A stretch of 48,347 bases of DNA from Nitrososphaerota archaeon (GTDB lineage Archaea; Iainarchaeota; Iainarchaeia; Iainarchaeales; GCA-2688035). Below the pieces are notes generated by a model. It saw only the letters and a list, made by a program, of their open reading frames with translations. It was not told the DNA's origin and made no database searches. Numbering within the stretch: position 1 is the first letter of the stretch; every line of letters begins with the position of its first letter. The stretch covers positions 1 through 48,347 of the forward strand of contig JAFCCH010000006.1 in assembly GCA_017610265.1 (NCBI GenBank), given 5' to 3'. Positions 13,766 through 32,791 of the stretch are shown in pieces. A program made the position numbers and the translations under genes.

Positions 13766-13792
13766 TAATGCTTTTTTAAAGAAAAGCAAAGC

Positions 13793-13821
13793 TTTAAATA
13801 CTATTATGAACATATGTTCAT
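13793..13821 (+). promoter_or_regulatory. TATA box (tttaaata, 13793-13800) followed by a perfect 16-bp palindrome ATGAACATATGTTCAT (13806-13821) abutting the DUF134 start codon
   Basis: Read directly. The palindrome is its own reverse complement and ends 1 nt before ATG 13823. TATA-to-ATG spacing of about 25 nt suggests a leaderless or short-leader mRNA with the operator over the TSS. Confidence 0.6.
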
Positions 13822-13822
13822 T

Positions 13823-14125
13823 ATGGCTAGGCCAAAAAAGACAAGATTTGTTGCATGCAATCCAGAGGCAACTTACTTCAAGCCAAGGGCAATTCCCTTA
13901 TTTGAATTAGAAGAAGTTGTGCTTAAATTAGAAGAAATTGAGGCATTAAAGCTGAAATTTTTGGAAAAATGCGAGCAGGAAGAGGCAGCAAAGAAAATGA
14001 AGGTAAGCAGAACAACCTTTTGGCGAGTGTTTAACAGCGCTGGAAAAAAAGTTGCAGATGCATTGATTAACGGCAAGGCCATTAGGATTGAAGGAGGGCA
14101 TTATGCCCTTAAAAAGGAGGTATAA
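13823..14125 (+). CDS. DUF134 (UPF0251) family putative DNA-binding protein
   Basis: 'MARPKKTRFVACNPEATYFKPRAIPL...LEEVVLKLEEIEALKL...QEEAAKKMKVSRTTFWR' matches the DUF134 N-terminal box plus its sigma-70 region-4-like HTH. Start moved to ATG 13823 (track: 13814). Confidence 0.75.
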   Translation: MARPKKTRFVACNPEATYFKPRAIPLFELEEVVLKLEEIEALKLKFLEKCEQEEAAKKMKVSRTTFWRVFNSAGKKVADALINGKAIRIEGGHYALKKEV

Positions 14126-14128
14126 AAA

Positions 14129-14284
14129 ATGCCTGGAAGAGGAAGAATGGGCGGATTTGGAATGGGACTGGGAGGCAACTGCGTTTGCCCAAATTGTGGA
14201 GCAACAGCAGCACACCAGCGAGGAATGCCCTGCACTCAGCAAAAATGCCCAAAATGCGGAAGCACAATGACAAGAGAAAGGTAA
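14129..14284 (+). CDS. unlisted 51-aa protein: Gly/Arg/Met-rich N-terminus plus CxxC...CxxC zinc ribbon
   Basis: My translation: MPGRGRMGGFGMGLGGNCVCPNCGATAAHQRGMPCTQQKCPKCGSTMTRER. A strong SD 'aggagg' (14115-14120) lies 8 nt upstream. It starts 3 nt after the DUF134 stop. It falls below the 60-aa cutoff of the ORF track. Confidence 0.6.
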   Translation: MPGRGRMGGFGMGLGGNCVCPNCGATAAHQRGMPCTQQKCPKCGSTMTRER

Positions 14285-14334
14285 TTTTGTTTGAATAAAG
14301 CATTAATTGAACAAGTTGAAAAAAGTGAATTTAA

Positions 14335-15519
14335 ATGAATAAACTTGAAAAAGCAGCAGTTATTTCCGTAATTGGAAACGCATTTGTTTCAGTAATCAAA
14401 TTTGCAGCAGGAACAACGTTTGGCTCTGTTGCATTGGTGGCCGATGCAATCCACTCTTTTACCGACATAATCGGAAGCATTGCAGTTTTCTTTGGAGTAA
14501 GGTTTGCTGATGTCAAAAGTGACAAATTCCCTTACGGTTTGTACAAACTTGAAAACTTTGTAAGCCTTTTTATTGCGCTTATAATTTTTTGGTCAGGAAT
14601 TGAAATTGCCTTGGAATCAATTGCAAAGCTTGGCTCTCCAACCCAAATAACAGGATTTGAAGCAATAATTGTTGCAATTGTTGCTCTTGTAATTGTTTAC
14701 GCACTTGCAAAATACAAGGAAAAAATTGGCAAAGCAGAGCACAGCCCAAGCATGATTTCAGAGGCAAAGCACAGCATGCTTGACGCATATGGCAGTGTTG
14801 GTGTTGTTGCGGCCCTTGGTTTAAGCTTTGCAGGCTTTCCAATATTTGATCCTTTAATAGGAGTTATTATTTCGGTTCTTGTATTCAAAGCAGGCTTGGA
14901 AATTTTTATGGATTCAACAAAGGTTTTGCTTGACATAAGCCTTGATTACAAAACAATGAAAAAAATTGAAAAAATTGCCACAGCACAAAAGGGCGTTAAG
15001 GTAAAGGAAATTCTTGCAAGAAACAGCGGCCGATACATCTTTGTTGATATAATGCTCGAAACAGGTTTGAAGGACTTGAAAAAAGTTGACAAGCTGCACA
15101 GGCAGTGCGAAACAGACATAAGGAAAGCAGTGCCAAGGATTGACAAGATAATGGTTGACATTCACTACAAGAAAAAGCCAGTGCTTGTTTATGCAATTGC
15201 ATTGGAGAAAAGAAGTGAAAAAAGCTCTATTGCGATGGAATTTGGAACCGCAAAATTTTTCGGCGTTTTTAAGGCCGAAAATAGAGCAGGAAAAGGCGGG
15301 CTTATTGAAAGCAAAATAATTGAAAATCCGCATTGCAAAAACGAGGAAAGGAAAGGAATTCTTGCGGCAGAGCTTCTTGCAAAAAACAATGTTGATGTGC
15401 TTTTTAGTAGGGAAAAAATGCGAAAAGGCGGTGCCTTTTATGCATTACAGGAAAGTTTTGTTGAAATGAGAAAAACCGAGAAAAAAACATTTAATAAATT
15501 GCTGGAGGAATTCAAGTAA
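14335..15519 (+). CDS. cation diffusion facilitator (CDF) metal efflux transporter fused to a C-terminal NifX/NifB-like (Nitro_FeMo-Co) domain
   Basis: Residues 1-290 are a CDF: 'VISVIGNAFVSVIKFAAG...VALVADAIHSFTDIIGS', 'HSMLDAYGSVGV', and a cytoplasmic CTD 'ILARNSGRYIFVDIMLE'. Residues ~295-394, 'VYAIALE..SSIAMEFGTAKFFGVFK....IENPHC....GILAAELLAKNNVDVLFSREKMRKGGAFYALQESFVEM', follow the NifX-like pattern (HFG.A..F...ENP...G...A..L...vdvvi...G..A...L). Confidence 0.6.
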   Translation: MNKLEKAAVISVIGNAFVSVIKFAAGTTFGSVALVADAIHSFTDIIGSIAVFFGVRFADVKSDKFPYGLYKLENFVSLFIALIIFWSGIEIALESIAKLGSPTQITGFEAIIVAIVALVIVYALAKYKEKIGKAEHSPSMISEAKHSMLDAYGSVGVVAALGLSFAGFPIFDPLIGVIISVLVFKAGLEIFMDSTKVLLDISLDYKTMKKIEKIATAQKGVKVKEILARNSGRYIFVDIMLETGLKDLKKVDKLHRQCETDIRKAVPRIDKIMVDIHYKKKPVLVYAIALEKRSEKSSIAMEFGTAKFFGVFKAENRAGKGGLIESKIIENPHCKNEERKGILAAELLAKNNVDVLFSREKMRKGGAFYALQESFVEMRKTEKKTFNKLLEEFK

Positions 15520-15543: not shown

Positions 15544-15864
15544 ATGCCCTTGGCTTTTTTTGGAGAAATTTTAATGATTGAAAATGAAACAATTAATTTG
15601 GTTGGATTTGTCATTCTTGCTTTTTCATTAATATTTGCTTACACAGGAACCCTTTCCCAATGCACTTACAGGAAATATATTGTTCCTGCAATGCTTTTGG
15701 TTATAGCAGTAATATTTTTACAGGAAATGATTGCAGCTTTAATGATTGCGGTTTCAGCCACATTGTTTTACAGTGGATATAAAGGATATGGAATTGAAGT
15801 CAAAAAAAAAGAGGCAGAAAAAACAAAAAATGAAACAAAGGAAGAAAAAACGGAGGAGATTTAA
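15544..15864 (+). CDS. small membrane protein (2-3 TM) with Lys/Glu-rich tail
   Basis: Hydrophobic ORF tightly packed between the CDF and NifX-like genes. The start is uncertain (alternative ATG at 15574). Confidence 0.4.
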   Translation: MPLAFFGEILMIENETINLVGFVILAFSLIFAYTGTLSQCTYRKYIVPAMLLVIAVIFLQEMIAALMIAVSATLFYSGYKGYGIEVKKKEAEKTKNETKEEKTEEI

Positions 15865-16434
15865 ATGAAGGTAGCAATTAGCGCCGTATCAGAAGATTTG
15901 AAACAGCCTGTAAACCTTGTTTTTGGAAGGTGCCCAGGCTATGTTATAGCTGAAATTGAAGGAAAAGAAGTAAAGGAAACAAAGTTTGTGCAAAATCCCG
16001 GAATGAACACAGGAATGGGAGCAGGAATTGCTGCAGCACAAGTAGTTGCAGGGCAAGGCGCACAGGCAGTTATTAGCGGCAATGTAGGGCCAAACGCGTT
16101 CATGGTTTTGCAGCAGTCGGGAATAAAGGTTTATAAAGTAGCAGATTTGAGTGTAGAGCAGGCATTAAAGCAGTTTGCTGACGGGAAGCTTGAAGAAGTA
16201 AAGGACTCAACTGCACCAGGCCACTTTGGAATGGGCCAAGGTCAAGGAACGGGCCAGGGCGCAGGAAGAGGCGCTGGAGCAGGAATGGGCCAAGGTCAAG
16301 GAACGGGCCAGGGGGCAGGAAGAGGCGCTGGAGCAGGAATGGGCCAAGGAAGAGGAACAGGAATGGGCCGAGGTGCCGGAGCTGGTGCAGGCAGAGGAAC
16401 AGGCGCAGGTCGCGGAAGAGGTCCGCCAATGTAA
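15865..16434 (+). CDS. NifX/NifB-like (Nitro_FeMo-Co domain) protein with ~70-aa Gly/Arg/Gln/Met-rich repetitive C-terminal tail
   Basis: 'MKVAISAVSEDL...VFGRCPGYVIAEIEGKEV...QNPG...GAGIAAAQVVAGQGAQAVISGNVGPNAFMVLQQSGIKVY' is a canonical NifX-like domain. The tail is 'GMGQGQGTGQGAGRGAGA' x2, then GMGQGRGTGMGRGAGAGAGRGTGAGRGRGPPM. Confidence 0.8.
   Translation: MKVAISAVSEDLKQPVNLVFGRCPGYVIAEIEGKEVKETKFVQNPGMNTGMGAGIAAAQVVAGQGAQAVISGNVGPNAFMVLQQSGIKVYKVADLSVEQALKQFADGKLEEVKDSTAPGHFGMGQGQGTGQGAGRGAGAGMGQGQGTGQGAGRGAGAGMGQGRGTGMGRGAGAGAGRGTGAGRGRGPPM
16228..16335 (+). repeat. 54-bp coding tandem repeat x2 (1 mismatch), decaying into degenerate G/R-coding repeats to ~16430
   Basis: Unit ggaatgggccaaggtcaaggaacgggccagggcgcaggaagaggcgctggagca at 16228-16281 and 16282-16335. 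Confidence 0.9.
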
Positions 16435-16448: not shown

Positions 16449-16826
16449 ATGAAGGTTGCGATTTCAACAGATTCAGGAAGAGTGGCGGAGCATTTTGGAA
16501 GATGCCCACAGTTCACAATTGCAAAAATAGAAAAAGGAAAAATTGTAAAAAAAGAGGTTATTGAAAATCCAGGGCATGCAACAGGATTTTTGCCAAAGTT
16601 TTTCAAAGAACAAGGCGTTGAGATAGTAATTGCAGGCGGTGCAGGAATGAGGGCCCAGCAGTTTTTTGAAGATTTTGGAATAAAACTTGTTGTTGGAGTT
16701 TCAGGAAACATTGATGATGCATTGCAGGCACTTGCCCAAGGAAAGCTTGAGGGCGGAGAAGGCAGCTGCAGCCCTGGAGCAGGAAAAGGATACGGAATTC
16801 CAAAAGAAGACGGGCACGGCGAATGA
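16449..16826 (+). CDS. NifX/NifB-like (Nitro_FeMo-Co domain) protein
   Basis: 'MKVAISTDSGRVAEHFGRCPQFTIAKIEKGKIV..EVIENPGH..GFLPKFFKEQGVEIVIAGGAGMRAQQFFEDFGIKLV'. SD 'aaggagg' upstream. Confidence 0.8.
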   Translation: MKVAISTDSGRVAEHFGRCPQFTIAKIEKGKIVKKEVIENPGHATGFLPKFFKEQGVEIVIAGGAGMRAQQFFEDFGIKLVVGVSGNIDDALQALAQGKLEGGEGSCSPGAGKGYGIPKEDGHGE

Positions 16827-17473
16827 AATTAAAAATTTTGGTAGACAACCAGGCAATGCCTGGTTTTAAGCAAGAATGGGGATTCAGCTGCCTTATTGAA
16901 GCAAAGGAAAATGTTTTGTTTGATACAGGAACAAGCCCTGATGTCCTAATGTTTAATGCAGAAAAGTTTGGCGTAAAGCCAGAGCAAATAGACAAAGTTG
17001 TTTTGTCACACGACCATTTTGACCACACAGGAGGCCTTGAATGGATTTTGCAAAATCCCAAAGTTAAGGTTTTTGCGCTGGATTCATTTTCTGATAAAAC
17101 AAAACAGAGAATTAAGGAAGAGGCTGAATTGGTTGAGGTAAACAAACCTGTTGAAATAAGCAACGGCATTTTTTCTACAGGAAAACTAAGCAATTCAATT
17201 GACGAGCAGTCTTTGGCATTGAAAACAGAAAAAGAAATTGTTGTTTTGACAGGGTGCTCCCACTCTGGATTGGAAAAGATTTTGGAAAAGGCTGGAGAGC
17301 ATGGAAAAATTCACGCAGTAATTGGTGGCTTTCACGGCTTTAAAAAATTCGATGTGTTAAAAGGAATTAATTTAATTGCAGCAACACATTGTACCGAACA
17401 CAAGAAAGAAATTCAGAGGCTTTTTCCAAAGGCTTTTGCCGAATGTGCTGCAGGAAAGGAATTTGAATTCTGA
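16823..17473 (+). CDS. MBL-fold metallo-hydrolase (MJ0301/COG1237-like)
   Basis: 'KILVDN...GFSCLIEAKENVLFDTGTSPDVL...IDKVVLSHDHFDHTGGLEWIL' with the HxHxDH-type motif. ATGA start/stop overlap with the upstream gene. Confidence 0.75.
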   Translation: MKLKILVDNQAMPGFKQEWGFSCLIEAKENVLFDTGTSPDVLMFNAEKFGVKPEQIDKVVLSHDHFDHTGGLEWILQNPKVKVFALDSFSDKTKQRIKEEAELVEVNKPVEISNGIFSTGKLSNSIDEQSLALKTEKEIVVLTGCSHSGLEKILEKAGEHGKIHAVIGGFHGFKKFDVLKGINLIAATHCTEHKKEIQRLFPKAFAECAAGKEFEF

Positions 17474-17483: not shown

Positions 17484-17684
17484 ATGCAAAAAGAATGCAA
17501 GTGGTTTTGGGTTTGCCCAATGAAAAGTTTTTGGGAAGAAGGAAAATTAAATGCAAAATGGATTGAAGAATACTGCAAAGGCGATTGGGGCAATTGCAAA
17601 AGGTACAGCATTGTGGAAGCAGGAAAATTGTGCCCTGACAACATGCTTCCAAATGGAAAAATTGACAAAAGCCTTGCCGAATAA
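17484..17684 (+). CDS. 66-aa Cys/Trp-rich small protein
   Basis: MQKECKWFWVCPMKSFWEEGKLNAKWIEEYCKGDWGNCKRYSIVEAGKLCPDNMLPNGKIDKSLAE has 5 Cys and 5 Trp. The track ORF 17376-17684 overlaps the MBL gene, so I start at the first ATG after its stop. Confidence 0.5.
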   Translation: MQKECKWFWVCPMKSFWEEGKLNAKWIEEYCKGDWGNCKRYSIVEAGKLCPDNMLPNGKIDKSLAE

Positions 17685-17789
17685 AATTCAGCGTTCATGA
17701 AAACGTTTAAATTAAATTGCTTTATTGGTTATTGCAACAGTTGTTGTATTTATTTAAAAAAAATATTTTGCAAAGAGGAGAGAATGTAA

Positions 17790-19133
17790 ATGAAAACCGA
17801 TGTATTAGTTATTGGCGGAGGACCTGCAGGAGCCGTAACTGCTTTGACTGTTAAAAAAAATTATCCTGAAAAAAAGGTTGTGCTGATTAAAAAAGATGAG
17901 AATTGCCTTATCCCATGTGGAATTCCCTATATTTTTGGCACTTTGCCAAGCGTTGAAAGCGATTGCATGCCAAACAAGCCGTTGGAAGAAAAAGGCATTG
18001 AACTTGTTTTTGAATCTGTTGAAAAAATTGATTCAAAAAGCAAAAAGGTTTTGACTGCGAAAAAAAAGGAAATTGGATATGATAAGCTTGTTCTTGCAAC
18101 AGGTTCTGTTGTAGTTAAGCCACCAATTAAGGGAATTGAATTAGACAAGGTGTTCTTTGTTGAAAAAAGTATGAAGAATATTGAAAATCTGAAAAATGCC
18201 GCCGGCAAAGCTGAAAACATTGTTATAATTGGAGGCGGCTTTATCGGTGTTGAGATTGCTGATGAATTGTGTAAAAGAGGCAAAAAGGTAAGCATTGTCG
18301 AAGCAGTGCCCTGTTTGTTGCAGCAGGCTTTTGACGAAGAATTCTGCAAAACTGTTGAACAGCGCTTAAAGAAGTTAGGAATAAAAATTTACACAAGTAC
18401 TATGGCAAAAGAAATAACAGGAAACAAAAAAGTTAAAGGCATTAAGCTTTCCGGCAAGCAGTCAAAAACACTGAAATCAGATTTGGTAATTGTCTGCGTC
18501 GGAGCAAAGCCAAATTCTTTACTTGCGGAAAAAGCAGGAATAGAGCTTGGAACAGGAAAGGGAATTATTGTTGATGAATATATGAGAACCAGTAAAAAAG
18601 ACATTTTTGCTGTTGGAGATTGTGCTGAAAAGAAAAGCTTTTTTACAAGACAGGTTTCAAATGTAATGCTTGCATCAACTGCTGCGTCAGAGGCAAGAAT
18701 TGCTGGCAACAACCTTTTTCAGTTTAGGGTAATACGGCAGAATAAGGGAACTATTGCAATCTTTTCAACATTTGTTGCAGGCATTGGATTGGCAGCAGCA
18801 GGACTTACAGAATCAGAGGCAAAAAGACAGTGCTTTGAATATGTTACAGGAAAAGCAGTAGCAAAAGACATGCATCCTGGTTGCCTGTCTGGATCAAGTG
18901 AGTTAAAGGTAAAAATGGTTTTTTCAAAAGACAGTGGAGTCTTGCTTGGATGTCAGGCAATGGGAGGAAAGGCAGTTGGAGAATTAATAAATCTTGCAGG
19001 CTTTGCAATACAAAACAATGCAACAATTTCAGAAATAAGCACTTTGCAGATTGGGACTCATCCCCTGCTTACCCCTGCCCCAACAAACCACCCGTTTGTG
19101 CTTGCAGCAGAAGCGGCAATGGCAAAACTTTAA
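17790..19133 (+). CDS. FAD-dependent pyridine nucleotide-disulfide oxidoreductase (NADH oxidase / CoA-disulfide reductase family)
   Basis: 'VLVIGGGPAGA' FAD dinucleotide fold, single redox Cys in 'NCLIPCGIPY', second Rossmann 'IVIIGGGFIGVE', and 'FAVGDCA'. Confidence 0.8.
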   Translation: MKTDVLVIGGGPAGAVTALTVKKNYPEKKVVLIKKDENCLIPCGIPYIFGTLPSVESDCMPNKPLEEKGIELVFESVEKIDSKSKKVLTAKKKEIGYDKLVLATGSVVVKPPIKGIELDKVFFVEKSMKNIENLKNAAGKAENIVIIGGGFIGVEIADELCKRGKKVSIVEAVPCLLQQAFDEEFCKTVEQRLKKLGIKIYTSTMAKEITGNKKVKGIKLSGKQSKTLKSDLVIVCVGAKPNSLLAEKAGIELGTGKGIIVDEYMRTSKKDIFAVGDCAEKKSFFTRQVSNVMLASTAASEARIAGNNLFQFRVIRQNKGTIAIFSTFVAGIGLAAAGLTESEAKRQCFEYVTGKAVAKDMHPGCLSGSSELKVKMVFSKDSGVLLGCQAMGGKAVGELINLAGFAIQNNATISEISTLQIGTHPLLTPAPTNHPFVLAAEAAMAKL

Positions 19134-19154: not shown

Positions 19155-19916
19155 ATGGACAAAATAAAGTTAGAAGGAATTGGGAAAAAAATTGCAGTGG
19201 TCAGCGGAAAAGGAGGGACAGGAAAAAGCACCTTTTCTGCATTGCTTGCATTGAGTTTGGCAGCCAAAGGAAAAAAGGTTGGATTGCTCGACATTGATGT
19301 TCACGGACCAAATATTCCGCTGTTGCTTGGAATTGAAGGAAAAAAGATGGGTATTGGCGAGAATAAAAAATTATTGCCTGTTGAGGCTGCACCAAACTTG
19401 AAGGTTGTTTCCACAAGCTTTATGCTTGAAAAAGAACAGGCTTTGATTTGGAGAGGTCCAATAAAGTCAAATTTTATTAGGCAATTAGCAGAGCAAACTG
19501 ATTGGGGCGAACTTGATTTTCTTATTGTAGATACCCCGCCAGGAACAGGCGATGAAATAATCACTTTAACACAATTAATTGATTTAACAGGCACAATAAT
19601 TGTTGGAACACCTCAGGCTGCCGCAGTTTATGATGTAAGAAAATCCATTGATGCAATGAGGTCAACTAAAGTAAAGATTTTGGGATTGGTTGAAAATATG
19701 AGTTATGTTGTTTGCCCAAAATGTGGTGAAATAATAGACTTGTTTGGAAAAGGGGAAATAAAAAAGCTGGCTGAAAAAGAAAAAATTGGTTTTTTTGGAG
19801 GCATGCCACTTGATCCAAAATTGAGAAAAATGACGGATGTGGGAAAAATTGAGCTGAAAAGCATTGAAAAGGAAATTACTGATTTGTTAACCAAGATAAT
19901 TAAAAGCATTGAATAA
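19155..19916 (+). CDS. Mrp/NBP35/ApbC family Fe-S cluster carrier ATPase
   Basis: Deviant Walker A 'VVSGKGGTGKST', 'LLDIDVHGPNIP', 'LIVDTPPGTGDE', and the 'CPKCG' cluster-ligand motif. Confidence 0.85.
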   Translation: MDKIKLEGIGKKIAVVSGKGGTGKSTFSALLALSLAAKGKKVGLLDIDVHGPNIPLLLGIEGKKMGIGENKKLLPVEAAPNLKVVSTSFMLEKEQALIWRGPIKSNFIRQLAEQTDWGELDFLIVDTPPGTGDEIITLTQLIDLTGTIIVGTPQAAAVYDVRKSIDAMRSTKVKILGLVENMSYVVCPKCGEIIDLFGKGEIKKLAEKEKIGFFGGMPLDPKLRKMTDVGKIELKSIEKEITDLLTKIIKSIE

Positions 19917-20030: not shown

Positions 20031-20051
20031 AACAAACAAAACAGTAATGGG

Positions 20052-20089
20052 CATACGCCCAAAACGTATTTAAAATGGTTTGGCGTATG
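20052..20089 (+). promoter_or_regulatory. BRE/TATA-like element embedded in an 8-bp perfect inverted repeat (CATACGCC-N22-GGCGTATG); shares a 23-nt motif with 26749-26771
   Basis: CATACGCCCAAAACGTATTTAAA (20052-20074) versus CATATGCCCAAAACGTATTTAAA (26749-26771): 22 of 23 identical, including an 18-nt perfect run. Confidence 0.6.
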
Positions 20090-23069: not shown

Positions 23070-23071
23070 AA

Positions 23072-25059: not shown

Positions 25060-25110
25060 CTAATCAGATTACTTAAGCAACAGGATTAAAGAGATTAGAG
25101 TTGGTAAAGG

Positions 25111-25683: not shown

Positions 25684-25695
25684 AGGCAGAAAAAA

Positions 25696-26396: not shown

Positions 26397-26741
26397 ATGA
26401 TAACTTTTGCATGCAAAAAAATAAGGCTAAATGAAATTATTAGCTGCTCATTCAGTTTAAACAAAACTGAATACACGGTATTTATGTTTTTGTTTAAAAA
26501 AGAAAAAGAATTTGACATTCACAGCCTTTCCAAAAAAATGGGTTTAGAAAGAACAACCTTACAAAAAGCACTAAAAACGCTTTTAGATAAGAAGCTGGCA
26601 AAAAGAAGGCAAATGAACCTAAAAACAGGGGGTTATTTCTTTTTGTACAACATAAAAAACAAAAACTCAATAAAGATGAGGCTTTTCGAGATAATTAGAC
26701 AGTGGGAAAAAATTGCCGAAGAGGAAATACAAACACTATAA
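26397..26741 (+). CDS. winged-helix transcription regulator (TrmB/MarR-like)
   Basis: 'LNKTEYTVFMFLFKKEKEFDIHSLSKKMGLERTTLQKALKTLLDKKLAKRR' has the wHTH layout. An alternative start at ATG 26364 overlaps the FTR stop. Confidence 0.55.
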   Translation: MITFACKKIRLNEIISCSFSLNKTEYTVFMFLFKKEKEFDIHSLSKKMGLERTTLQKALKTLLDKKLAKRRQMNLKTGGYFFLYNIKNKNSIKMRLFEIIRQWEKIAEEEIQTL

Positions 26742-26748
26742 TAATGCA

Positions 26749-26785
26749 CATATGCCCAAAACGTATTTAAAGCTTTTGAAGCATA
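26749..26785 (+). promoter_or_regulatory. second copy of the CATAYGCCCAAAACGTATTTAAA promoter/operator motif, with TATGC-N25-GCATA inverted repeat
   Basis: See 20052-20089. The TATA-like 'gtatttaaag' lies about 32 nt upstream of ATG 26802. Confidence 0.6.
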
Positions 26786-26801: not shown

Positions 26802-27635
26802 ATGAAACAAATTGCGATTACAGGAGGCAAGGGAGGAACAGGCAAAAGTACTGTTGCCACAGCTCTGGCAGTAGAGCTTGGAAAAAGCCACAAAGTTTTG
26901 CTTGTTGACGCAGATGTTGACTGTCCAAACGACCACTTACTTTTAGGAATTGAAAGGAAACCGTTGAAAAAGGTTTTTCAAAGGATTCCAAAATGGGATT
27001 TTGAAAAATGCATAAAATGCGGAAAATGTGCCGAAGCATGCAAGATCAATTCCATTTTTGCCCCCAAAGGAAAACAGCCTGTTTTTCTGCCACAGCAATG
27101 TAATGGATGCGGAGCATGTGTTATAACCTGCCCTGCAAAGGCAATAGGCTGGAGTGAAAAGGAAATTGGAGAAGTTTTCAAAGGAAAGGGATATGGCATT
27201 GACTTTATTTCAGGCGAATTAAAAATAAACGAGGCTGTTTCCGAATTTGTTGTCGCATCCTTGAAAGAAGAGGTTGAAAAGATCAAGGAAAGCTATGATT
27301 TTGTCTTGTTTGATACAGCCGCCGGAACTCACTGCGATGTTATTTCAGCATTGGAGGGGTCAAAAATGGCTTTGGCTGTCACAGAGCCAACGCCTTTGGG
27401 AGAGCATGACCTTGAATTAATTATGAAGCTTTTGAAAAAGCTCGGCATAAAATTTGAAATTATTTTAAACAGGTTTGAAAAAGGCGGAAAAAAAATTATT
27501 GAAAATTCAGCAGAAAGACAAGGTAAAACAATTGCTGCAAAAATACCTTACAGTAAAAAAATAATGGAAAGTTACAGCAAGGGAATTCCTGTAAGCCATG
27601 AAAGCATTAAGGCAATTGCGGAGCTGGTTAAATGA
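26802..27635 (+). CDS. MinD/ParA-type P-loop ATPase with inserted 2x[4Fe-4S] ferredoxin domain
   Basis: 'IAITGGKGGTGKSTVA', 'VDADVDCPN', then 'CIKCGKCAEACK' and 'CNGCGACVITCP', followed by the remainder of the MinD fold. Confidence 0.85.
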   Translation: MKQIAITGGKGGTGKSTVATALAVELGKSHKVLLVDADVDCPNDHLLLGIERKPLKKVFQRIPKWDFEKCIKCGKCAEACKINSIFAPKGKQPVFLPQQCNGCGACVITCPAKAIGWSEKEIGEVFKGKGYGIDFISGELKINEAVSEFVVASLKEEVEKIKESYDFVLFDTAAGTHCDVISALEGSKMALAVTEPTPLGEHDLELIMKLLKKLGIKFEIILNRFEKGGKKIIENSAERQGKTIAAKIPYSKKIMESYSKGIPVSHESIKAIAELVK

Positions 27636-28519
27636 AAAAAATAACTGTTTTGTCAGGCAAGGGTGGAGTAGGCAAGAGCAGCATTGCGGCATCGCTTGCT
27701 GTTTTGCTTGCCGAGAAACACAAAATTGTTTGCGCTGACTGCGATGTTGACGCTTCAAACCTTGCGCTTGTGTTTGGGTTAAGGGAAAAGGATTTTGACG
27801 AATGGAAAAAAATTTCAACAAACGAGAAAGCAAGGCTTGATGAAGGAAAGTGCAATGGCTGCAAAAAATGCGTTGAAAGCTGTTACTTTAATGCAATCAA
27901 ATGGAATGAGGAAAAAAAGCAGCCTATTTTTGACGAGTTTTCCTGCGAGGGCTGCGGAGCATGTGAAATCACCTGCCCTGAAAAGGCAATAAGCCTTGTT
28001 CAGGTTGAAAATGCAAAAATCGGTTATGGGAAAACAAAATACGGTTTCACAGTTGTTTCAGGCCAACTTGAAATGGGCGAATCAGGTTCAGGAAAAGTTG
28101 TAGCAGAGGTAAGAAAGCTTGCCGAAGAAAAAGGCAAGGGCGCAGAAATTATGGTAATTGATGCCGCAGCAGGAATAGGTTGCCCTGTAATTGCATCAGT
28201 TGTCGGAAGCGATTTTGTTATAGGAGTAACAGAGCCAACCCCTTCAGGCCTTTCTGACTTGAAAAGGGCATTGCAGATGACAAGACATTTTGGAATTGAA
28301 TGCGGAATAGTGATAAACAAACACGACCTAAATCCAGAAATGTCAAAAACTATTGAAAAATTTGCAGAAGAAAATTCAATGCCTGTTTTGGCAAAAATAG
28401 GCTATGACAAAAACTTTGTTAATGCATTGGTTAACCTTGTGCCAATAATAGAATACAACCCAAAAATAAGACCTGTTTTTGAGGAAATCCTGCAAAAACT
28501 GCCAACAGGAAAGAAATAA
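27632..28519 (+). CDS. MinD/ParA-type P-loop ATPase with inserted 2x[4Fe-4S] ferredoxin domain (second paralog)
   Basis: 'ITVLSGKGGVGKSSIA', 'CADCDVDASN', 'CNGCKKCVESC' and 'CEGCGACEITCP'. ATGA overlap with the upstream paralog. Confidence 0.85.
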   Translation: MKKITVLSGKGGVGKSSIAASLAVLLAEKHKIVCADCDVDASNLALVFGLREKDFDEWKKISTNEKARLDEGKCNGCKKCVESCYFNAIKWNEEKKQPIFDEFSCEGCGACEITCPEKAISLVQVENAKIGYGKTKYGFTVVSGQLEMGESGSGKVVAEVRKLAEEKGKGAEIMVIDAAAGIGCPVIASVVGSDFVIGVTEPTPSGLSDLKRALQMTRHFGIECGIVINKHDLNPEMSKTIEKFAEENSMPVLAKIGYDKNFVNALVNLVPIIEYNPKIRPVFEEILQKLPTGKK

Positions 28520-28567: not shown

Positions 28568-28945
28568 ATGATTAAACCAAAAGATACGCAAACAGCAATG
28601 GCTTTTGCAAGGGTTTTTGGAACCTTGGCAGACCCAAACAGGCTGCTGATACTGAAAGCTCTTGGAAACAAGGAAAAGTCTGTTAACCAAATAGCGGTTG
28701 AATTAGGACTTTCACAGCCACTGGTTTCACACCATTTGGCCGCATTGAAAGCAGTGGGCTTGGCAATTTCAAAAAAAGCAGGCTCATTTGTTTTTTACAG
28801 AATTTCAACGGAAAAAATTTTGGACTTTGTAAACGGTCTTGAGGAAACATTGCAGGACATAGAAAAAAATACAGAACCAACGGCTTTCCCCCAACCTTAT
28901 ACCTTTTTTAAGGCAAGAGGCAGGCGTGGAAGGAGATGGATGTAA
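28568..28945 (+). CDS. ArsR/SmtB family metalloregulator with Arg-rich C-terminal tail
   Basis: 'FARVFGTLADPNRLLILKALGNKEKSVNQIAVELGLSQPLVSHHLAALKAVGL' is a canonical ArsR HTH. The tail is 'KARGRRGRRWM'. Start at ATG 28568 (track: 28550). Confidence 0.85.
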   Translation: MIKPKDTQTAMAFARVFGTLADPNRLLILKALGNKEKSVNQIAVELGLSQPLVSHHLAALKAVGLAISKKAGSFVFYRISTEKILDFVNGLEETLQDIEKNTEPTAFPQPYTFFKARGRRGRRWM

Positions 28946-28964
28946 AAAAAGGAGGTGGCAGGCA

Positions 28965-29054
28965 ATGGCTTGTCCCGGAGACAAAATAAGAAGTAAAGGA
29001 AAAGGAAGAGGCCTTGGAACAGGAAAAGGAAAAGGCCCAATTGGAAGGAGGTGA
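28965..29054 (+). CDS. candidate 29-aa Gly/Lys/Arg-rich micro-ORF
   Basis: My translation: MACPGDKIRSKGKGRGLGTGKGKGPIGRR. SD 'aaaggaggtg' (28949-28958) lies 7 nt upstream. Its stop overlaps the SD of the DUF5320 gene. Coding status is unproven. Confidence 0.35.
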   Translation: MACPGDKIRSKGKGRGLGTGKGKGPIGRR

Positions 29055-29556: not shown

Positions 29557-29637
29557 GGCAGAATTTTACCGCATTATAGTTATTTAAAAATTGTGTTTTT
29601 ATAAATATTATAAAGATGTTTTAGATAGTGTTTTTTA

Positions 29638-30045
29638 TTGCCGGATTTTGAAACGGAAAAAATTAAAGCGGAAAAATTTAAGAAAATGCAAAAAGAACTT
29701 TTGAAAAAAGAGGTGAAACAATTGGAGATAAAAGTAGATGATGAAAATTTTGAAAAAGAAGTAATTAAAAAAAGCTGGAGTACGCCTGTTGTAACTGACT
29801 TTTGGGCAAGCTGGTGCATGCCTTGCCTTATGCTTGGACCAATACTTGAAAAATTTGCCAAAGAACTTGAGGGAAAATTTGTACTGGCAAAAGTAAATGT
29901 TGATGAAACCCGTGCGGCAAGCGAAAAATATGAAATTTCAAGCATTCCAGCAATAAAAATGTTTAAAAACGGAAAAGTAGTTGACGAATTTATTGGAGTA
30001 TTACCGAAAGAAATGATTAGGGACTGGCTGAAGAAAAATTTGTGA
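29638..30045 (+). CDS. trx: thioredoxin with WCMPC active site (paralog of 21053-21460)
   Basis: 'VVTDFWASWCMPCLMLGPILEKFAKEL'. TTG start. An AT-rich TATA-like 'tttttataaatattataaag' lies about 30 nt upstream. Confidence 0.85.
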   Translation: MPDFETEKIKAEKFKKMQKELLKKEVKQLEIKVDDENFEKEVIKKSWSTPVVTDFWASWCMPCLMLGPILEKFAKELEGKFVLAKVNVDETRAASEKYEISSIPAIKMFKNGKVVDEFIGVLPKEMIRDWLKKNL

Positions 30046-30056
30046 GGTAAGCAAAA

Positions 30057-30323
30057 ATGGAAAGTGAAATGGAAAAAATTGCTGAAAAATATAGGATTCA
30101 TGCAAAAGAAAACGGTTTCAAATTAAACCCTGATGAAAAAATGCTGGAAGGGACCCTAAAGGGCTTAATTGAAAATGAAAAAAGGTACGGTAAAAAATAT
30201 TGCCCTTGCCGAAGAGTAACAGGAAACAAGGAAGAGGACAAAAAAATAATCTGCCCATGCATTTACCACAAAAAAGAAATTGAAACACAAGGACATTGCC
30301 TTTGCAGGCTGTTTGTAAGGTGA
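30057..30323 (+). CDS. ferredoxin:thioredoxin reductase catalytic-subunit homolog (second copy)
   Basis: 'KKYCPCRRVTGNKEEDKKIICPCIYHKKEIETQGHCLCRLF'. 54 nt (30252-30305) are identical to 26293-26346. Confidence 0.85.
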   Translation: MESEMEKIAEKYRIHAKENGFKLNPDEKMLEGTLKGLIENEKRYGKKYCPCRRVTGNKEEDKKIICPCIYHKKEIETQGHCLCRLFVR

Positions 30324-30329
30324 TGCAAA

Positions 30330-30647
30330 ATGCAACTGCTTGTTTTTGTTTCATCCCACTGCCTGCACTGTCCAAAGGCAGTTGAAGCCGTAAAAAAAGC
30401 AGTTTCCAAATACAGCGATTATGATTTAAACTACAGAAAAATAAGGGCAAACACAACGGAAGCAAAAGAAATTTCAGGCAGTTATGACATAAGAGCATAC
30501 CCAACAATAATAGGGTTAAATGAAGACAATGAAATCATTTGCAAAATGGTTGGAACGCCAACTGAAGAAAAGCTGGCAAAAGAAATTGAAAAAGGCCTTG
30601 GCTTAAAAAAATCTTTTTTTGAAAAAATTTTTGGCAAAAAAAAATGA
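30330..30647 (+). CDS. small thioredoxin-fold / glutaredoxin-like protein (CLHC active site)
   Basis: 'LLVFVSSHCLHCPKAVEAVKKA...YPTII' is a CxxC at a beta1-alpha1 junction plus a cis-Pro motif. Confidence 0.7.
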   Translation: MQLLVFVSSHCLHCPKAVEAVKKAVSKYSDYDLNYRKIRANTTEAKEISGSYDIRAYPTIIGLNEDNEIICKMVGTPTEEKLAKEIEKGLGLKKSFFEKIFGKKK

Positions 30648-31042
30648 CTACAAAAAATTTTTTGGACAAAAAAAATAAAATTGCAGTAGTGGGAGTTTCT
30701 GCAAATCCGCAAAAATGGGGCTCAAAAATTTACAGTGAATTAAAGTCTACAGATTATTGCGTTTATGCAGTAAACCCAAAGCACAAAAAAATAGGGTTGG
30801 ACAATTGTTATCCAAATCTTGAAACCCTGCCAAAAAACCCAGATGTTGTGATAATTGTTGTCCCTTCAAACATTACTGAACAGGTTGTAAAGCAGTGTAA
30901 AAAGCTTGGCATAAAAAAGATTTGGATGCAGCCTGGTTCAGAATCAGAAAAAGCAGTAAAGTTTTGCAAAGACCACAAGATTGAACTGGTTTACAATGCC
31001 TGTTTTGTTGTTAACGGCTTAAAAAAAACACAAAAATTTTAG
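30644..31042 (+). CDS. CoA-binding domain protein (YccU/YneT-like)
   Basis: 'KIAVVGVSANPQKWGSKIY..L....Y.VYAVNPK' and 'VVIIVVP'. ATGA overlap with the upstream gene. Confidence 0.75.
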   Translation: MTTKNFLDKKNKIAVVGVSANPQKWGSKIYSELKSTDYCVYAVNPKHKKIGLDNCYPNLETLPKNPDVVIIVVPSNITEQVVKQCKKLGIKKIWMQPGSESEKAVKFCKDHKIELVYNACFVVNGLKKTQKF

Positions 31043-31123
31043 AAGGATTTAAACCTAAGCTTTGAGAAACTCACTTAAATGTTATGTTCATTTAATAAAT
31101 TTAACAAAAAACAGTGGTTTTGT

Positions 31124-31942
31124 ATGAAAAAAATGCTTTTAATTGTATTAATTGCCTTTCTTTTTATTGCTTCAAGCGCAAGCGCTGAAACAGTTTGCGG
31201 AGTCTATTTTACAAAAATTGGCTGCCCTGTTTGCGCAAAGGTTGACCCAGTTATTTTAGACCAGTGGATTCCAAGCCAAAGTGATACAGTAATAATAGAA
31301 TATGTTATGAACTCGTGGTTTGACCCACATGCAATCCTAATGGGAGAATACAATTTAGCACATGGCACAGGCAGTTCTGTTCCATTAATGATAAAAAATG
31401 CTAATGAAACATGGGCAGGCATTCCTGCTTTTTACACAAACGACGACATTTTTAAACATGCAGAAGAATTCTTTGAAGATGACCAAGGAAAATGCCTGCT
31501 TGTTGAAGGAGAAATTTCCTTTGAAGAACTTAATTTGAATAACTTGCCTGAAAAACCAAAGATTTGGGCAGGCAAAAGGCTTTTGGTCAAAACAGGCGAT
31601 GCACAAATTGAAAGCGATTTTCTGAAAGAGCTTTTGTTTACAGAAAATTTAACAAGCACAATTGCAAATGCACTATATGAATTAAAGGAAATAAAGGCAG
31701 AACCAACCCCCTATTCAGGAGGTTCAATTCCTTTTGAACAGGCAATTGACATTGGCAGCGGATGGATTTTGAAGCTAAAGGAAAAAATTGAATTGCCTGA
31801 AAATGTTGAAAAAATGGAAAACAATGGGAATGAAGGCAAGGGGGAAAATTATATAGAAGCAAATCCACTTGTTTTGTCTATAGGAATAATAATTGCAGGA
31901 CTTATTGCACTAATTATTTTTATTAAGGTGAAAAGCAAATGA
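31124..31942 (+). CDS. exported CxxC protein with C-terminal membrane anchor
   Basis: Signal peptide 'MKKMLLIVLIAFLFIASSASA', 'CGVYFTKIGCPVCAKV', and a C-terminal TM 'LVLSIGIIIAGLIALIIFI'. Start at ATG 31124 (track: 31079). Confidence 0.6.
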   Translation: MKKMLLIVLIAFLFIASSASAETVCGVYFTKIGCPVCAKVDPVILDQWIPSQSDTVIIEYVMNSWFDPHAILMGEYNLAHGTGSSVPLMIKNANETWAGIPAFYTNDDIFKHAEEFFEDDQGKCLLVEGEISFEELNLNNLPEKPKIWAGKRLLVKTGDAQIESDFLKELLFTENLTSTIANALYELKEIKAEPTPYSGGSIPFEQAIDIGSGWILKLKEKIELPENVEKMENNGNEGKGENYIEANPLVLSIGIIIAGLIALIIFIKVKSK

Positions 31943-32754
31943 TGGAATTAACAGTCTCGGCAATTGTTTCACTTGCATTAGTTGACTCAATTAATCCCTG
32001 TGCAATTGCAGTCTTGTCCCTTTTGATTATTGCTTATATGACACACAATCCAAAGGAAAAAAAGAAGGCATTGCTTGCAGGCTTTTTCTTTATTGCCGCA
32101 GTTTATCTTGTTTACCTTGTTTACGCACTTGTTCTTGTTGAAACAATAGGCGCTTGCATGGAGGCAATTGCTGGCTCAGAATTATTCATTTATGGAGGTT
32201 TCAGCCTTATTGCAATTGCATTAGGTGTCTTCAATGTAAAAGACTTTTTTTGGTACAAGCCAGGTGGCCTTCTTAGGGAAATGCCAATGAAATGGCGACC
32301 TGCTGTTAAAAAACTATTAAGCGGAATTGAAAGCCCTAAAGGCGGCTTTGTCCTAGGACTTTTTGTAACAGTTTTTCTCTTGCCCTGTACTATTGGCCCA
32401 TTGGTAATGGCATGTACTTTGCTTGCAAAATATGGCACGATTGCAGCAGTACCCTGGCTTTTGCTTTACAATTTTATCTTTGTTCTGCCAATGCTTGCAA
32501 TTGTAATAGCAATTTACATTGGATTAACAGTAGTTGGAAATGTAACTGAATGGAAGGACAGAAACATCAAATACCTGCACCTTATTGCAGGCGCTATAAT
32601 GGCAATTATTGGACTTTACCTTGCATGGGGCGCTGAAAATGCATTCCATATTGCACTTGGACCAATTGACCTAAACTTTTTTACAATTGGAATAATTGAA
32701 ATTCCAATACTGTTTGCAATAATCATGCTCAGGCACAAGGCAAAAAAAGAATAA
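31939..32754 (+). CDS. ccdA: CcdA/DsbD-family transmembrane thiol:disulfide electron transporter
   Basis: Polytopic membrane protein with the two conserved membrane-embedded Cys motifs 'SINPCAIAVL' and 'LLPCTIGPL'. ATGA overlap with the upstream gene. Confidence 0.75.
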   Translation: MMELTVSAIVSLALVDSINPCAIAVLSLLIIAYMTHNPKEKKKALLAGFFFIAAVYLVYLVYALVLVETIGACMEAIAGSELFIYGGFSLIAIALGVFNVKDFFWYKPGGLLREMPMKWRPAVKKLLSGIESPKGGFVLGLFVTVFLLPCTIGPLVMACTLLAKYGTIAAVPWLLLYNFIFVLPMLAIVIAIYIGLTVVGNVTEWKDRNIKYLHLIAGAIMAIIGLYLAWGAENAFHIALGPIDLNFFTIGIIEIPILFAIIMLRHKAKKE

Positions 32755-32791
32755 TGCCTTTTTCTTTTTTTCCTCAGTTAAATAATGTTAA

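Follow-up and report, generated by a model that had tools for sequence, protein, structure and literature searches.

The 48,347-nucleotide stretch of contig JAFCCH010000006.1 (GenBank assembly GCA_017610265.1) analyzed here, referred to below as the window, carries between positions 13,790 and 32,760 an island of about 19 kb encoding iron-sulfur (Fe-S), metal, and thiol-redox proteins. Judged by sequence comparison, the heart of this island is the archaeal counterpart of the Desulfovibrio orange protein (ORP) cluster joined to an IssA-type protein, and thus a known kind of system. Its conserved core, as delimited by homologous loci, comprises DUF134, the zinc-ribbon miniprotein ZnRib51, a CDF transporter fused to a NifX-like domain (CDF::NifX), the membrane protein TM106, two NifX-like proteins, and a pair of MinD-type ATPases with ferredoxin inserts (MinD-Fer4). 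The 19-kb span is a lineage-specific expansion of this ORP/IssA-type cluster by thioredoxin (Trx) and Fe-S carrier genes, and no new kind of system. The region as a whole is probably, though by no means securely, a composite of a conserved ORP/IssA-type core managing labile iron-sulfur species and of modules added later. By analogy with its characterized relatives, the core would function in the storage or trafficking of Fe-S clusters or iron sulfide.

The core recurs as a compact block of 4-8 kb in the DPANN loci L004, L005, L089, L090, L094, and L099. Locus L004 reads DUF134, DUF5320, ZnRib, CDF::NifX, TM, NifX, CMD, NifX, MinD, MinD; L094 reads ZnRib, CDF::NifX, TM, NifX, NifX, MinD, MinD; and L005 reads DUF134, ZnRib, NifX, NifX, MinD, MinD. 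The order in L090, which L089 resembles, is DUF5320, DUF134, CDF::NifX, TM, NifX, NifX, orf76, MinD, MinD, CcdA-like, and that in the Aenigmarchaeota locus L099 is DUF134, NifX, MinD, CDF::NifX, MinD. Another compact cluster, L100, contains DUF134, a methyltransferase (MT), NifX, NifU_N, MinD, and MinD. The NifU_N gene of this DPANN cluster (L100:7803-8165) encodes an IscU-type scaffold. For the Desulfobacterota, 80 loci anchored on ORP homologs were sampled and their open reading frames (ORFs) searched with the window proteins; among the 36 loci with full flanks, the MinD-Fer4 pair lies within 6 kb in 35, a second NifX-like gene is present in 34, and DUF134 in 20. An Elusimicrobiota locus, L098, combines Trx, a thioredoxin reductase-like protein, Mrp, a fused MinD-Fer4::MinD-Fer4, a ferredoxin::NifX fusion (Fdx::NifX), and a homolog of the window's Cys/Trp-rich miniprotein. 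DUF5320 and Mrp occur in some relatives only and, with a CcdA-like protein, are frequent companions of the core. Fusions also link the core families to one another, namely DUF134::NifX, DUF134::ZnRib, NifX::ZnRib, and an FeS (PF04060) plus DUF5320-like segment joined to ZnRib. An earlier description of this DNA made without database searches (the sequence-only reading) had stated that NifX-like genes recur beside DUF134, DUF5320, and MinD-ferredoxin genes, and this proved correct in at least six DPANN lineages, in the same 35 of 36 Desulfobacterota loci, and in the one Elusimicrobiota locus. That four PF02579 domains should lie within 14 kb of sequence together with a MinD-Fer4 pair, in an arrangement recurring across phyla, is far beyond chance.

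In the ORP complex, the MinD-type ATPases are Orp3 and Orp4, each of which has two [4Fe-4S] motifs, and the NifX-like orange protein is Orp8 (PMC6345978, PMC8359166). Orp9, or MrpORP, joins Mrp to a NifX-like domain and transfers Fe-S clusters to Orp3 and Orp4 (PMC6345978), and Orp5 is a small [2Fe-2S]-type protein (PMC6345978, PMC8359166). Expression of orp tracks redox potential and is on only when this is low (PMC8359166). Like the ORP complex, the window cluster is restricted to anaerobes and contains adjacent paralogous MinD-type ATPases with two [4Fe-4S] motifs each, a single-domain NifX-like protein, Mrp/NBP35, and DUF134 at its head. It differs from the ORP complex in its archaeal host and in its regulation, with DUF134, TrmB-like, and ArsR-like regulators in place of a sigma-54 activator or OrpR, neither of which was found among the annotated window ORFs. 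In addition, Mrp and a Di-Nase-like domain are separate genes in the window, which also has CDF::NifX, TM106, DUF5320, and an ORP-like protein that ends in a Gly/Arg tail, and the cluster is split by ~12.5 kb of thiol-redox and other genes. The statement in the sequence-only reading that no function had been established for such a neighborhood fails in that the ORP complex and IssA have both been characterized, and stands insofar as the role of ORP in the cell is still described as unclear (PMC8359166).

The second point of reference is IssA (PF2025) of Pyrococcus furiosus, which consists of a NifX-like domain and a cationic, Gly-rich, disordered tail of ~70 residues containing 14 aromatics in 70 residues (PMC5524996). 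IssA stores iron and sulfide as thioferrate and is able to restore the ferredoxin cluster, and MTH1175 has been assigned to the IssA clade (PMC5524996). The first stand-alone NifX-like protein of the window similarly has an N-terminal IPR003731/PF02579 domain closest to MTH1175 and a Gly-rich, cationic tail of ~70 residues. The PDB sequence matches of this N-domain include MTH1175 (1e-25) and, over residues 1-109, D. gigas ORP (2WFB; 7e-14). The tail, with 33 Gly, 7 Arg, and no acidic residues in 69 (pI 12.0), is predicted to be disordered and cationic; in the AlphaFold model, the predicted local distance difference test score (pLDDT) exceeds 93 for residues 1-118 and is below 50 for the tail. 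An 18/54-nt tandem repeat (16228-16413) encodes the tail, and all DPANN homologs of the protein bear G/R tails that vary in length and sequence while keeping this character. On another contig, the protein P0121 has an identical N-domain and a tail 10 residues shorter, so the repeat number seems to be strain-variable. In contrast to that of IssA, the window tail is composed of Gly, Arg, Gln, Met, and Ala and is nearly free of aromatics, an aromatic-rich Gly/Arg segment being found instead in DUF5320. It better suits the description of the uncharacterized 'IssX' clade of mesophiles, with Gly-rich, high-pI tails (PMC5524996), than that of IssA proper. Also unlike IssA, the window protein is encoded within an ORP-type cluster that includes MinD-Fer4 ATPases, and its binding of thioferrate is putative. 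IssA is reportedly induced within a sulfur-responsive regulon, which the CoA-disulfide reductase (CoADR)-type flavoprotein, thioredoxin-like, and Mrp neighbors in the window echo.

All four NifX-like domains named in the sequence-only reading are upheld, by Pfam in four of four cases (Table 1) and by hhalign or AlphaFold and Foldseek for the two weakest, and a NifX-like (Nitro_FeMo-Co) fold is supported for these regions. The C-terminus of CDF::NifX aligns with the NifX family profile at an hhalign probability of 96.3% (E 1.6e-9). The Fdx::NifX model (pLDDT 86.8, predicted template modeling score 0.78) returns Ta1041, NifX bound to NifEN (9IAN_F), NafY (1P90), MJ0327, and TM1816 as Foldseek matches of its C-domain and single-cluster ferredoxins as those of its N-domain. 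The second stand-alone protein, NifX125, matches 1o13/1t3v at ~5e-17 and covers only the C-terminal 100 positions (the Di-Nase domain) of the NCBIfam MrpORP model NF041136, with 93.6 bits against a cut-off of 450. The fold, PF02579, and the Foldseek matches to 9IAN_F and 1P90 are shared with NifX, NafY, and the C-terminal domain of NifB; the window domains are nevertheless closer by sequence to the MTH1175, TM1816, and Ta1041 groups, and nifHDKENB are absent from the annotated genes. Consistent with the earlier remark that no nitrogenase was in sight, genes for nitrogenase or nif maturases were found neither among the annotated window ORFs, which cover the island and most of its flanks and leave five long plus-strand ORFs at 39.9-45.6 kb and the EF-2 gene (45617-47818) unscanned, nor in the DPANN comparison loci whose genes were annotated.

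The two MinD-Fer4 genes adjoin each other in the DPANN loci examined, except that CDF::NifX sits between them in L099, and their ATPase halves match archaeal MinD (1g3q/1ion). Homologs of the window's Mrp occur in the clusters of L006, L097, and L098. At L098:5199-8801, one 620-aa gene fuses two MinD-Fer4 units and is followed by genes for a 295-aa protein with a BMC (microcompartment shell) domain, Fdx::NifX, and the Cys/Trp miniprotein homolog. The closeness of the ATPase halves to archaeal MinD bears on the proposal, made for Desulfovibrio ORP, that such clusters form a MinD-like positioning or cell-division device in which Fe-S clusters serve as redox sensors and not as cargo. In D. vulgaris, loss of orp expression results in morphological defects and MrpORP is polar (PMC8359166, PMC6345978). 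This link to division is indirect, however, and the ORP authors themselves call the role unclear. The metal transporter fusion, the IssA-like protein, the NifU_N protein of L100, and Mrp point instead to metal-sulfur chemistry, and no division genes were found in the window or the comparison loci, so that a division device is held to be decidedly improbable.

A feature that cuts across the island is the occurrence of Gly/Arg-rich segments in four proteins: the tail of the IssA-like protein, the N-terminus of ZnRib51, the center of DUF5320, and the end of the ArsR-family protein. The DUF5320 center contains 28 Gly, 12 Arg, and 12 Phe plus Tyr in 81 residues (pI 11.7). Such segments might alternatively be RGG-type nucleic-acid-binding or condensate motifs, through which ZnRib51, DUF5320, ArsR, and the NifX tail would act on DNA or RNA. 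The DUF134 and DUF5320 proteins of Methanosarcina mazei have been flagged with a G-quadruplex-binding-like RG motif (PMC7565180), and two of the window proteins with RG segments are helix-turn-helix (HTH) regulators or their partners. Against this, IssA, the one assayed homolog with a tail of this kind, binds thioferrate, the domains that carry the tails are ones that bind metal clusters, and strain-variable tail length is what would be expected of a non-specific electrostatic binder. A nucleic-acid role as the general explanation is thus the most remote of the alternatives, and the iron-sulfide reading of the segments is retained below.

Several core proteins are distinguished by their position and fusions. 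DUF134 heads the cluster in L004, L005, L097, L099, and L100. In 42 of the 44 Desulfobacterota loci with a DUF134 match, it shares a single reading frame with the ORP (NifX-like) domain; a DUF134::NifX fusion is backed by Pfam at L007:3134-3865, and DUF134::ZnRib fusions occur in P0343, P0349, and P0372. Because it is fused elsewhere to the NifX or the ZnRib module, DUF134 is the likely regulator of the neighborhood. A DUF134::ORP stop-to-stop frame is also present in a Desulfovibrio metagenome-assembled genome 93% identical to D. gigas ORP, and D. gigas ORP was nevertheless crystallized as a 120-residue chain. An internal start, processing, or a true regulator::sensor fusion are possible explanations.

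Homologs of ZnRib51 hold the equivalent position in L004, L005, L006, L087, L089, L091-L094, and L097 and are found in ~12 Desulfobacterota ORP loci; the module has 1284 cluster representatives at E <= 1e-3. It occurs fused to DUF134, to a NifX-like domain, and, in P0350, to PF04060 and a DUF5320-like segment. Among library matches, the module is repeated 4-5 times inside the ~1000-1400-residue proteins P0280, P0281, and P0285, and by homology it is therefore also a repeat unit of large proteins. CDF::NifX has FieF as its best PDB sequence match (1.5e-17; 2qfi/3h90 ~1e-17) and resembles FieF/YiiP in its transmembrane and ZT_dimer domains, differing from them in the extra C-terminal NifX-like domain. 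This fusion is kept in DPANN archaea (10 loci in alignment A2, plus L099). TM106, which follows it and was missing from the earlier gene list together with the conserved 76-aa ORF (orf76), has homologs at the equivalent position in L004, L087, L089, L090, L091, L094, and L097.

The three local regulators of the sequence-only reading are present as DUF134, a TrmB-type winged-helix protein, and an ArsR-type HTH protein. The TrmB-type gene holds the equivalent position in L002 and L003, and the ArsR-family gene is paired with DUF5320 in the nearest relatives L002 and L097. The ArsR-family protein has no cysteines, and a role as a classical metal or arsenic sensor was rejected. DUF5320 adjoins DUF134 in L004, L090, L092, L093, and L095, and Mrp in L006. 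Between the ArsR and DUF5320 genes, a 42-codon ORF rich in Gly, Lys, and Arg, formerly listed as a gene, is doubtful because it has no family match and because the ArsR-DUF5320 gap of 19 nt in L097 leaves no room for a counterpart; it is probably a non-gene or the remnant of a DUF5320- or ZnRib-type N-terminus.

The neighborhood is thus conserved as a core of 4-8 kb, whereas its 19-kb extent is not. L004, a 74%-identical relative, occupies the same chromosomal locus, with radical-SAM/helix-hairpin-helix (rSAM-HHH) and ZIP genes upstream and DNA methyltransferase, HD hydrolase, and rpoH/rpoB genes downstream, and there NifX is followed directly by the MinD pair without the window's added blocks. 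Relative to L004, the window has ~10 kb extra between 16826 and 26802 and ~2.5 kb extra between 28519 and 31079; the ~10-kb block contains MBL, CoADR-like, Mrp, DUF59, TrmO, Trx, ABC/CobW-FeS/DUF4346, Fdx::NifX, TehA, MT, fdx, and the ferredoxin-thioredoxin reductase homolog (FTR). Since the same locus in L004 lacks both blocks, the 19 kb are a core with accreted modules, and comparison of the two gene orders shows ~12.5 kb of further genes inserted as two blocks in the window's lineage. Each inserted block bears its own promoter-like sites. The nearest relative, L097/L002 (81-89% amino acid identity), has most of the added genes, with DUF59, TrmO, Fdx::NifX, and TehA absent from it. Its island is interrupted by opposite-strand UDG and ARMT1-like genes, its ArsR-DUF5320 pair lies 3′ of Mrp, and Trx and FTR are each present there in one copy.

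The sequence-only reading had instead suggested that the whole ~19 kb may form one co-regulated system that traffics a metal or metal-sulfur cofactor or inserts it, and that has its own reductant supply. The genes are indeed all co-oriented and often tightly spaced, with 4-nt overlaps of the ATGA type at five junctions and gaps of 0-14 nt at seven; the expanded arrangement is common to L097/L002/L003; and Mrp, Trx, TrmO, MBL, SAM-MT, and ZIP lie beside the core in the Woesearchaeota locus L006, as do Mrp and Trx by the MinD fusion in L098. An identical 18-mer within a promoter-like element also precedes both DUF59-TrmO and the MinD pair. Co-orientation of ~35 genes is, however, uninformative about the island since almost every gene of the 48-kb window is on the plus strand. 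L004 has the core only at the same locus, the compact cores of L005, L090, L094, and L099 are without thiol genes, opposite-strand unrelated genes lie inside the L097 island, and the relatives that share the expansion are close kin. The promoter-like sites, of which there are about eight (six to seven identified by motif), moreover disfavor a single operon and suggest several transcription units. One 19-kb system is consequently considered unlikely. Of the earlier interpretation overall, the recurrent neighborhood and the NifX-like folds survive, and the single machine and the lack of precedent do not. The added modules are probably functionally related neighbors for reductant, thiol maintenance, and metal handling and not parts of one machine. 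Since accessory families recur near the core in L006 and L098, a looser functional association is plausible, and the presence of these genes is probably non-random but optional.

BRE/TATA-like sites lie 5′ of DUF134 (26 nt), the flavoprotein (89 nt), DUF59, MinD1, ArsR (38 nt), and the exported CxxC gene, and probably of both Trx genes. Five of the seven strict matches fall within intergenic sequence, which makes up 6.7% of the region. The two copies of a 43-nt promoter/operator-like element share the 18-mer GCCCAAAACGTATTTAAA, found twice in the window against 0.22 expected, and the element contains the BRE/TATA-like AAAACGTATTTAAA. An exact search of the other loci returned no match; among the upstream regions read, a diverged copy lies 5′ of MinD1, just 3′ of the TrmB-like gene, in L002 and L003 only. 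The element is possibly a shared operator.

On the composite reading, the core would operate as follows. Membrane transport of Fe2+ would fall to ZIP and the FieF-like CDF, and the NifX-like domain of the CDF is positioned so that it could link this transport to the Fe-S pool of the cytosol. The NifX-like domains, including the CDF-tethered one, may bind labile iron-sulfide species without classical Cys ligation, and the IssA-like Gly/Arg segments may hold an anionic, thioferrate-like iron-sulfide polymer or clusters, a role that probably extends to the segments of ZnRib51, DUF5320, and ArsR. Just as MrpORP serves Orp3 and Orp4, Mrp and perhaps DUF59 would supply the MinD-Fer4 pair with [4Fe-4S] clusters, and this pair would drive loading, unloading, or positioning of the store with ATP. 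DUF134, with ZnRib51 as a detached sensor module, would sense the state of the pool and control the operon. Thiol reductant, finally, would be provided and passed on by the two copies of the fdx-FTR-Trx chain, by the CoADR-like flavoprotein and the CoA-binding protein, and by the pair of CcdA-like and exported CxxC proteins.

Several points weigh against this account. Every functional step in it is drawn from homology. What ORP does in the cell is described as unclear, cell division being one proposal (PMC8359166), and later Mössbauer work suggests that IssA may detoxify by-product iron sulfide and not be a true store (PMC8219758). The window tail has a single Phe in 69 residues, Mrp (19155-19916) has no NifX domain by Pfam, unlike the MrpORP fusion, and ZnRib51, with its six Cys, is only a candidate counterpart of the [2Fe-2S]-type Orp5. 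Fdx::NifX is found outside ORP-type clusters in Aminicenantes and Asgard loci, and the Gly/Arg segments could bind nucleic acids in an RGG-like manner (PMC7565180). Since the nearest relatives are so close (81-89% amino acid identity), shared accessory synteny is weak evidence of selection.

A bolder extension of the composite reading, which is doubtful, would treat all ORP-type clusters (DUF134, ZnRib, NifX-like, and the MinD-[4Fe-4S] pair, to which CDF::NifX, DUF5320, and Mrp may or may not be added) as one ancient, anaerobe-wide iron-sulfide machine. Small proteins with disordered Gly/Arg-rich segments (the IssA-like tail, the ZnRib51 N-terminus, the DUF5320 center, and the ArsR tail) would assemble with anionic Fe-S polymer to give a protein-mineral condensate that the redox-active MinD ATPases load, dissolve, or partition at division, CDF::NifX would couple Fe2+ flux at the membrane to it, and DUF134 would be the cluster-sensing transcription factor, with NifX or ZnRib as its sensor domain. 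If true, a condensate partitioned by MinD would bring together the two readings of ORP, 'cell division' and 'Fe-S'.

Table 1. Genes and sequence elements of the island and its upstream edge. Bit scores are from Pfam unless stated otherwise; GA, gathering cut-off.
Feature	Positions	Strand	Support
ZIP-family divalent metal (Fe/Zn) transporter, upstream edge	13004-13765	+	Pfam Zip, 146 bits
DUF134, predicted DNA-binding regulator with sigma-70 region-4-like HTH; core	13814-14125	+	Pfam, 92 bits
ZnRib51, 51-aa miniprotein, Gly/Arg-rich N-terminus then CxCxxC...C....CxxC; core	14129-14284	+	weak zinc-ribbon Pfam matches
CDF::NifX, FieF-like CDF fused to C-terminal NifX-like domain; core	14335-15519	+	Cation_efflux, 146 bits; ZT_dimer; Nitro_FeMo-Co, 30.3 bits (GA 26.3)
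TM106, 106-aa membrane protein directly 3′ of CDF::NifX; core	15544-15864	+	no Pfam match
IssA-like protein, NifX-like domain (1-118) and 69-aa Gly/Arg tail; core	15865-16434	+	Nitro_FeMo-Co, 77 bits
NifX125, stand-alone second NifX-like protein; core	16449-16826	+	Nitro_FeMo-Co, 75 bits
MBL-fold hydrolase	16823-17473	+	Lactamase_B, 51 bits
CW54, 54-aa Cys/Trp-rich miniprotein	17520-17684	+	no Pfam match
FAD pyridine-nucleotide disulfide oxidoreductase, CoA-disulfide reductase/NADH oxidase type	17790-19133	+	Pyr_redox_2, 231 bits; dimerization domain
Mrp/NBP35 (ApbC) Fe-S carrier ATPase, CPKC motif	19155-19916	+	ParA/NUBPL, 296 bits
43-nt promoter/operator-like element, copy 1, 5′ of DUF59-TrmO	20032-20074	+	84% identical to copy 2
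DUF59/FeS_assembly_P (SufT-like) protein	20145-20435	+	30.3 bits (GA 23.5)
TrmO/TsaA N-terminal domain protein	20443-20928	+	TrmO_N, 138 bits; TIGR00104, 134 bits, over cut-off
Thioredoxin 1, 135 aa from TTG start	21053-21460	+	Thioredoxin, 96 bits
Soluble ABC-type ATPase without adjacent permease	21472-22281	+	ABC_tran, 58 bits
G3E (CobW/HypB/UreG-type) NTPase fused to PF04060 Fe-S domain	22254-23069	+	cobW, 36 bits; FeS, 40 bits
PterinBD-DUF4346 protein	23072-23416	+	75 bits
Fdx::NifX, single-cluster ferredoxin and NifX-like domain	23470-24030	+	Nitro_FeMo-Co, 30.4 bits; Fer4
TehA/SLAC1-family anion channel	24064-25059	+	SLAC1, 173 bits
SAM methyltransferase	25111-25683	+	Methyltransf_11/31
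orf76, conserved 76-aa ORF	25696-25926	+	recurrence in relatives
fdx, 2 x [4Fe-4S] ferredoxin, 58 aa, 2 x CxxCxxCxxxCP	25919-26095	+	Fer4, 67 bits
FTR catalytic-subunit homolog 1	26098-26364	+	FeThRed_B, 79 bits
TrmB/DnaD_N-type winged-helix regulator directly 5′ of MinD pair	26397-26741	+	Pfam
43-nt promoter/operator-like element, copy 2, 5′ of MinD1	26729-26771	+	84% identical to copy 1
MinD1 and MinD2, adjacent MinD-type ATPases, 2 x [4Fe-4S] ferredoxin insert each; Orp3/Orp4 counterparts; core	26802-27635, 27632-28519	+	CbiA and Fer4 x2 each
ArsR-family HTH protein, cysteine-free, RG-rich C-terminus KARGRRGRRWM	28568-28945	+	HTH_5, 56 bits
G/K/R-rich 42-codon micro-ORF overlapping ArsR gene end; doubtful	28926-29054	+	no family match
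DUF5320, MPRGDGTGP... N-terminus, Gly/Arg/Phe/Tyr-rich center, C-terminal helix	29059-29484	+	83 bits
Thioredoxin 2, FTR homolog 2, Trx/Grx-like CxxC protein, CoA_binding_2 protein	29638-31042	+	Pfam
Exported, membrane-anchored GCPVC protein	31079-31942	+	no Pfam match
Polytopic membrane protein, NPC/LPC motifs in predicted TM segments, CcdA/DsbD-like	31939-32754	+	SfLAP, 28 bits (GA 35)

Between 13.0 and 32.8 kb, 35 plus-strand ORFs were accepted as likely genes in addition to the one doubtful micro-ORF. The gene content, order, and strand given in the sequence-only reading are confirmed by Pfam, hhalign, and AlphaFold/Foldseek for nearly every label, and nearly all family labels score above the Pfam gathering cut-off. 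Among the accessory genes, MBL holds the equivalent position in L097 and has two copies in the L006 cluster. The CW54 homolog of the Elusimicrobiota locus lies directly 3′ of Fdx::NifX (E 4.5e-19); a 49-aa ORF at 17551-17700 does not fit the Cys/Trp miniprotein, whereas 17520-17684 does. The nearest NCBIfam model of the flavoprotein is CoA-disulfide reductase, at 244 bits and far under the cut-off. No DUF59 homolog was found in any comparison locus, which makes this accessory gene specific to the window's lineage. The TrmO gene adjoins CDF::NifX in L088 and L092 and MinD in L006, and the Trx-ABC-CobW/FeS-DUF4346 block is kept in L002, L003, and L097.

Fdx::NifX has 352 homologs at E <= 1e-5, of which the best 120 are 54-84% identical and include named members from Elusimicrobiota, Aminicenantes, Syntrophaceae, and Promethearchaeia. 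Because the gene lies elsewhere in Aminicenantes and Asgard loci, it was rejected as an obligate member of the ORP cluster. At L101:4547-6964 (Aminicenantes), Fdx::NifX adjoins Hdr/Qmo-like flavoproteins, TusA, and DsrE-like sulfur-relay genes. Its absence from the nearest relative L097 suggests that it was probably acquired in the window's lineage. The same is probable for TehA, which was found in no comparison locus and only in the window. The GC fraction is 0.32-0.34 over 23000-26000 (Fdx::NifX, TehA, and the methyltransferase), compared with ~0.39 for the window, and this low-GC patch, together with the absence of Fdx::NifX and TehA from the nearest relative, suggests recent acquisition. 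MT and orf76 occur as a pair in L002, L003, and L089, orf76 stands alone directly 5′ of MinD1 in L090, and MT is followed by a 70-aa ORF without a match in L100. A tehAB-like pairing of TehA with the methyltransferase was rejected since the latter has no TehB family match and MT and orf76 are kept without TehA in relatives.

These genes bear on whether the island handles sulfides of a heterometal or metalloid (Mo/W-Cu-S, or Te/Se/As), or detoxifies them, rather than iron-sulfur species. D. gigas ORP bears a [S2MoS2CuS2MoS2] cluster, as cited within PMC6345978, and TehA, a SAM methyltransferase, ArsR, CDF, and ZIP are all encoded in the window. Yet no Mo/W transporter or molybdopterin gene was found in the window, TehA is confined to it and lies in the low-GC patch, and the ArsR protein is cysteine-free. 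As the CDF is closest to FieF Fe/Zn exporters, and MrpORP and IssA bind Fe-S, heterometal handling appears very improbable, and the iron-sulfur reading of the core is preferred.

The remaining accessory genes are concerned largely with thiols. The order fdx-FTR is equal in L002 and L097, and fdx is the ORF at 25919-26095; the 76-aa ORF at 25696-25926 does not fit that label. As in the FTR systems of anaerobes, an 88-aa FeThRed_B protein with CPC...CPC...CxC (KYCPCRR...ICPC...HCLC in translation) adjoins a 2 x [4Fe-4S] ferredoxin and thioredoxins. Unlike those systems, the window has two copies (79 and 84 bits for FeThRed_B) inside a gene cluster for Fe-S handling, no variable subunit, and a CcdA-like and an exported CxxC protein downstream. 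Over 285 nt, the two FTR genes are 82% identical, and 300 nt at the Trx1 gene are 81% identical to 29632-29931 at the Trx2 gene; L002/L097 have a single Trx copy. The gene set at 29638-31042 is a putative ferredoxin-dependent thiol-reduction operon, with the FTR-TrxL-CoAb order equal in L002 and L003. The GCPVC and CcdA-like pair lies 3′ of the MinD pair in L002 and L003, and a CcdA-like gene lies 3′ of MinD2 in L089 and L090. The earlier label 'CcdA' is tentative and draws on the NPC/LPC motifs, the SfLAP match below threshold, and the adjacent exported GCPVC protein; searches of NCBIfam and of PDB sequences gave no match for this protein.

The host is a small DPANN archaeon. The best-named homologs of the MinD-Fer4 protein are from DPANN archaea (Diapherotrites, 77%; Woesearchaeota; Aenigmarchaeota; Nanoarchaeota), and split rpoB genes 3′ of the island fit an archaeal RNA-polymerase operon. 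The flanks consist of ordinary housekeeping genes. The ZIP gene at the upstream edge adjoins DUF134 in L004 and L097 and lies within the clusters of L006 and L089. An rSAM-HHH protein (11854-12981) and an N6/N4 DNA methyltransferase (32792-33895) are encoded on either side of the island; both also bracket the cluster in L004, and the methyltransferase is kept downstream in L002 and L003. They look like DNA-repair or modification genes without relation to the cluster. About 2 kb 3′ of the island, a tRNA-Asp(GTC) gene (34722-34794) separates the DNA methyltransferase gene from the RNA-polymerase operon.

How strict anaerobes build Fe-S clusters and store iron is poorly understood. In this setting, the locus indicates that ORP, from a sulfate reducer, and IssA, from a hyperthermophile, which have been studied apart, belong to one conserved neighborhood across Archaea and Bacteria. 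The CDF::NifX fusion, ZnRib51, TM106, and DUF5320 are new candidate members of that neighborhood, DUF134 emerges as its likely sensor-regulator, and the shared Gly/Arg segments are a useful lead on its function. Together with its relatives, the locus yields concrete hypotheses, open to testing, about what the ORP complex does. It also bears on the management of iron and sulfide in DPANN archaea with tiny genomes; if the bolder extension set out above were true, the neighborhood might be a main route of Fe-S supply in these genome-reduced organisms.

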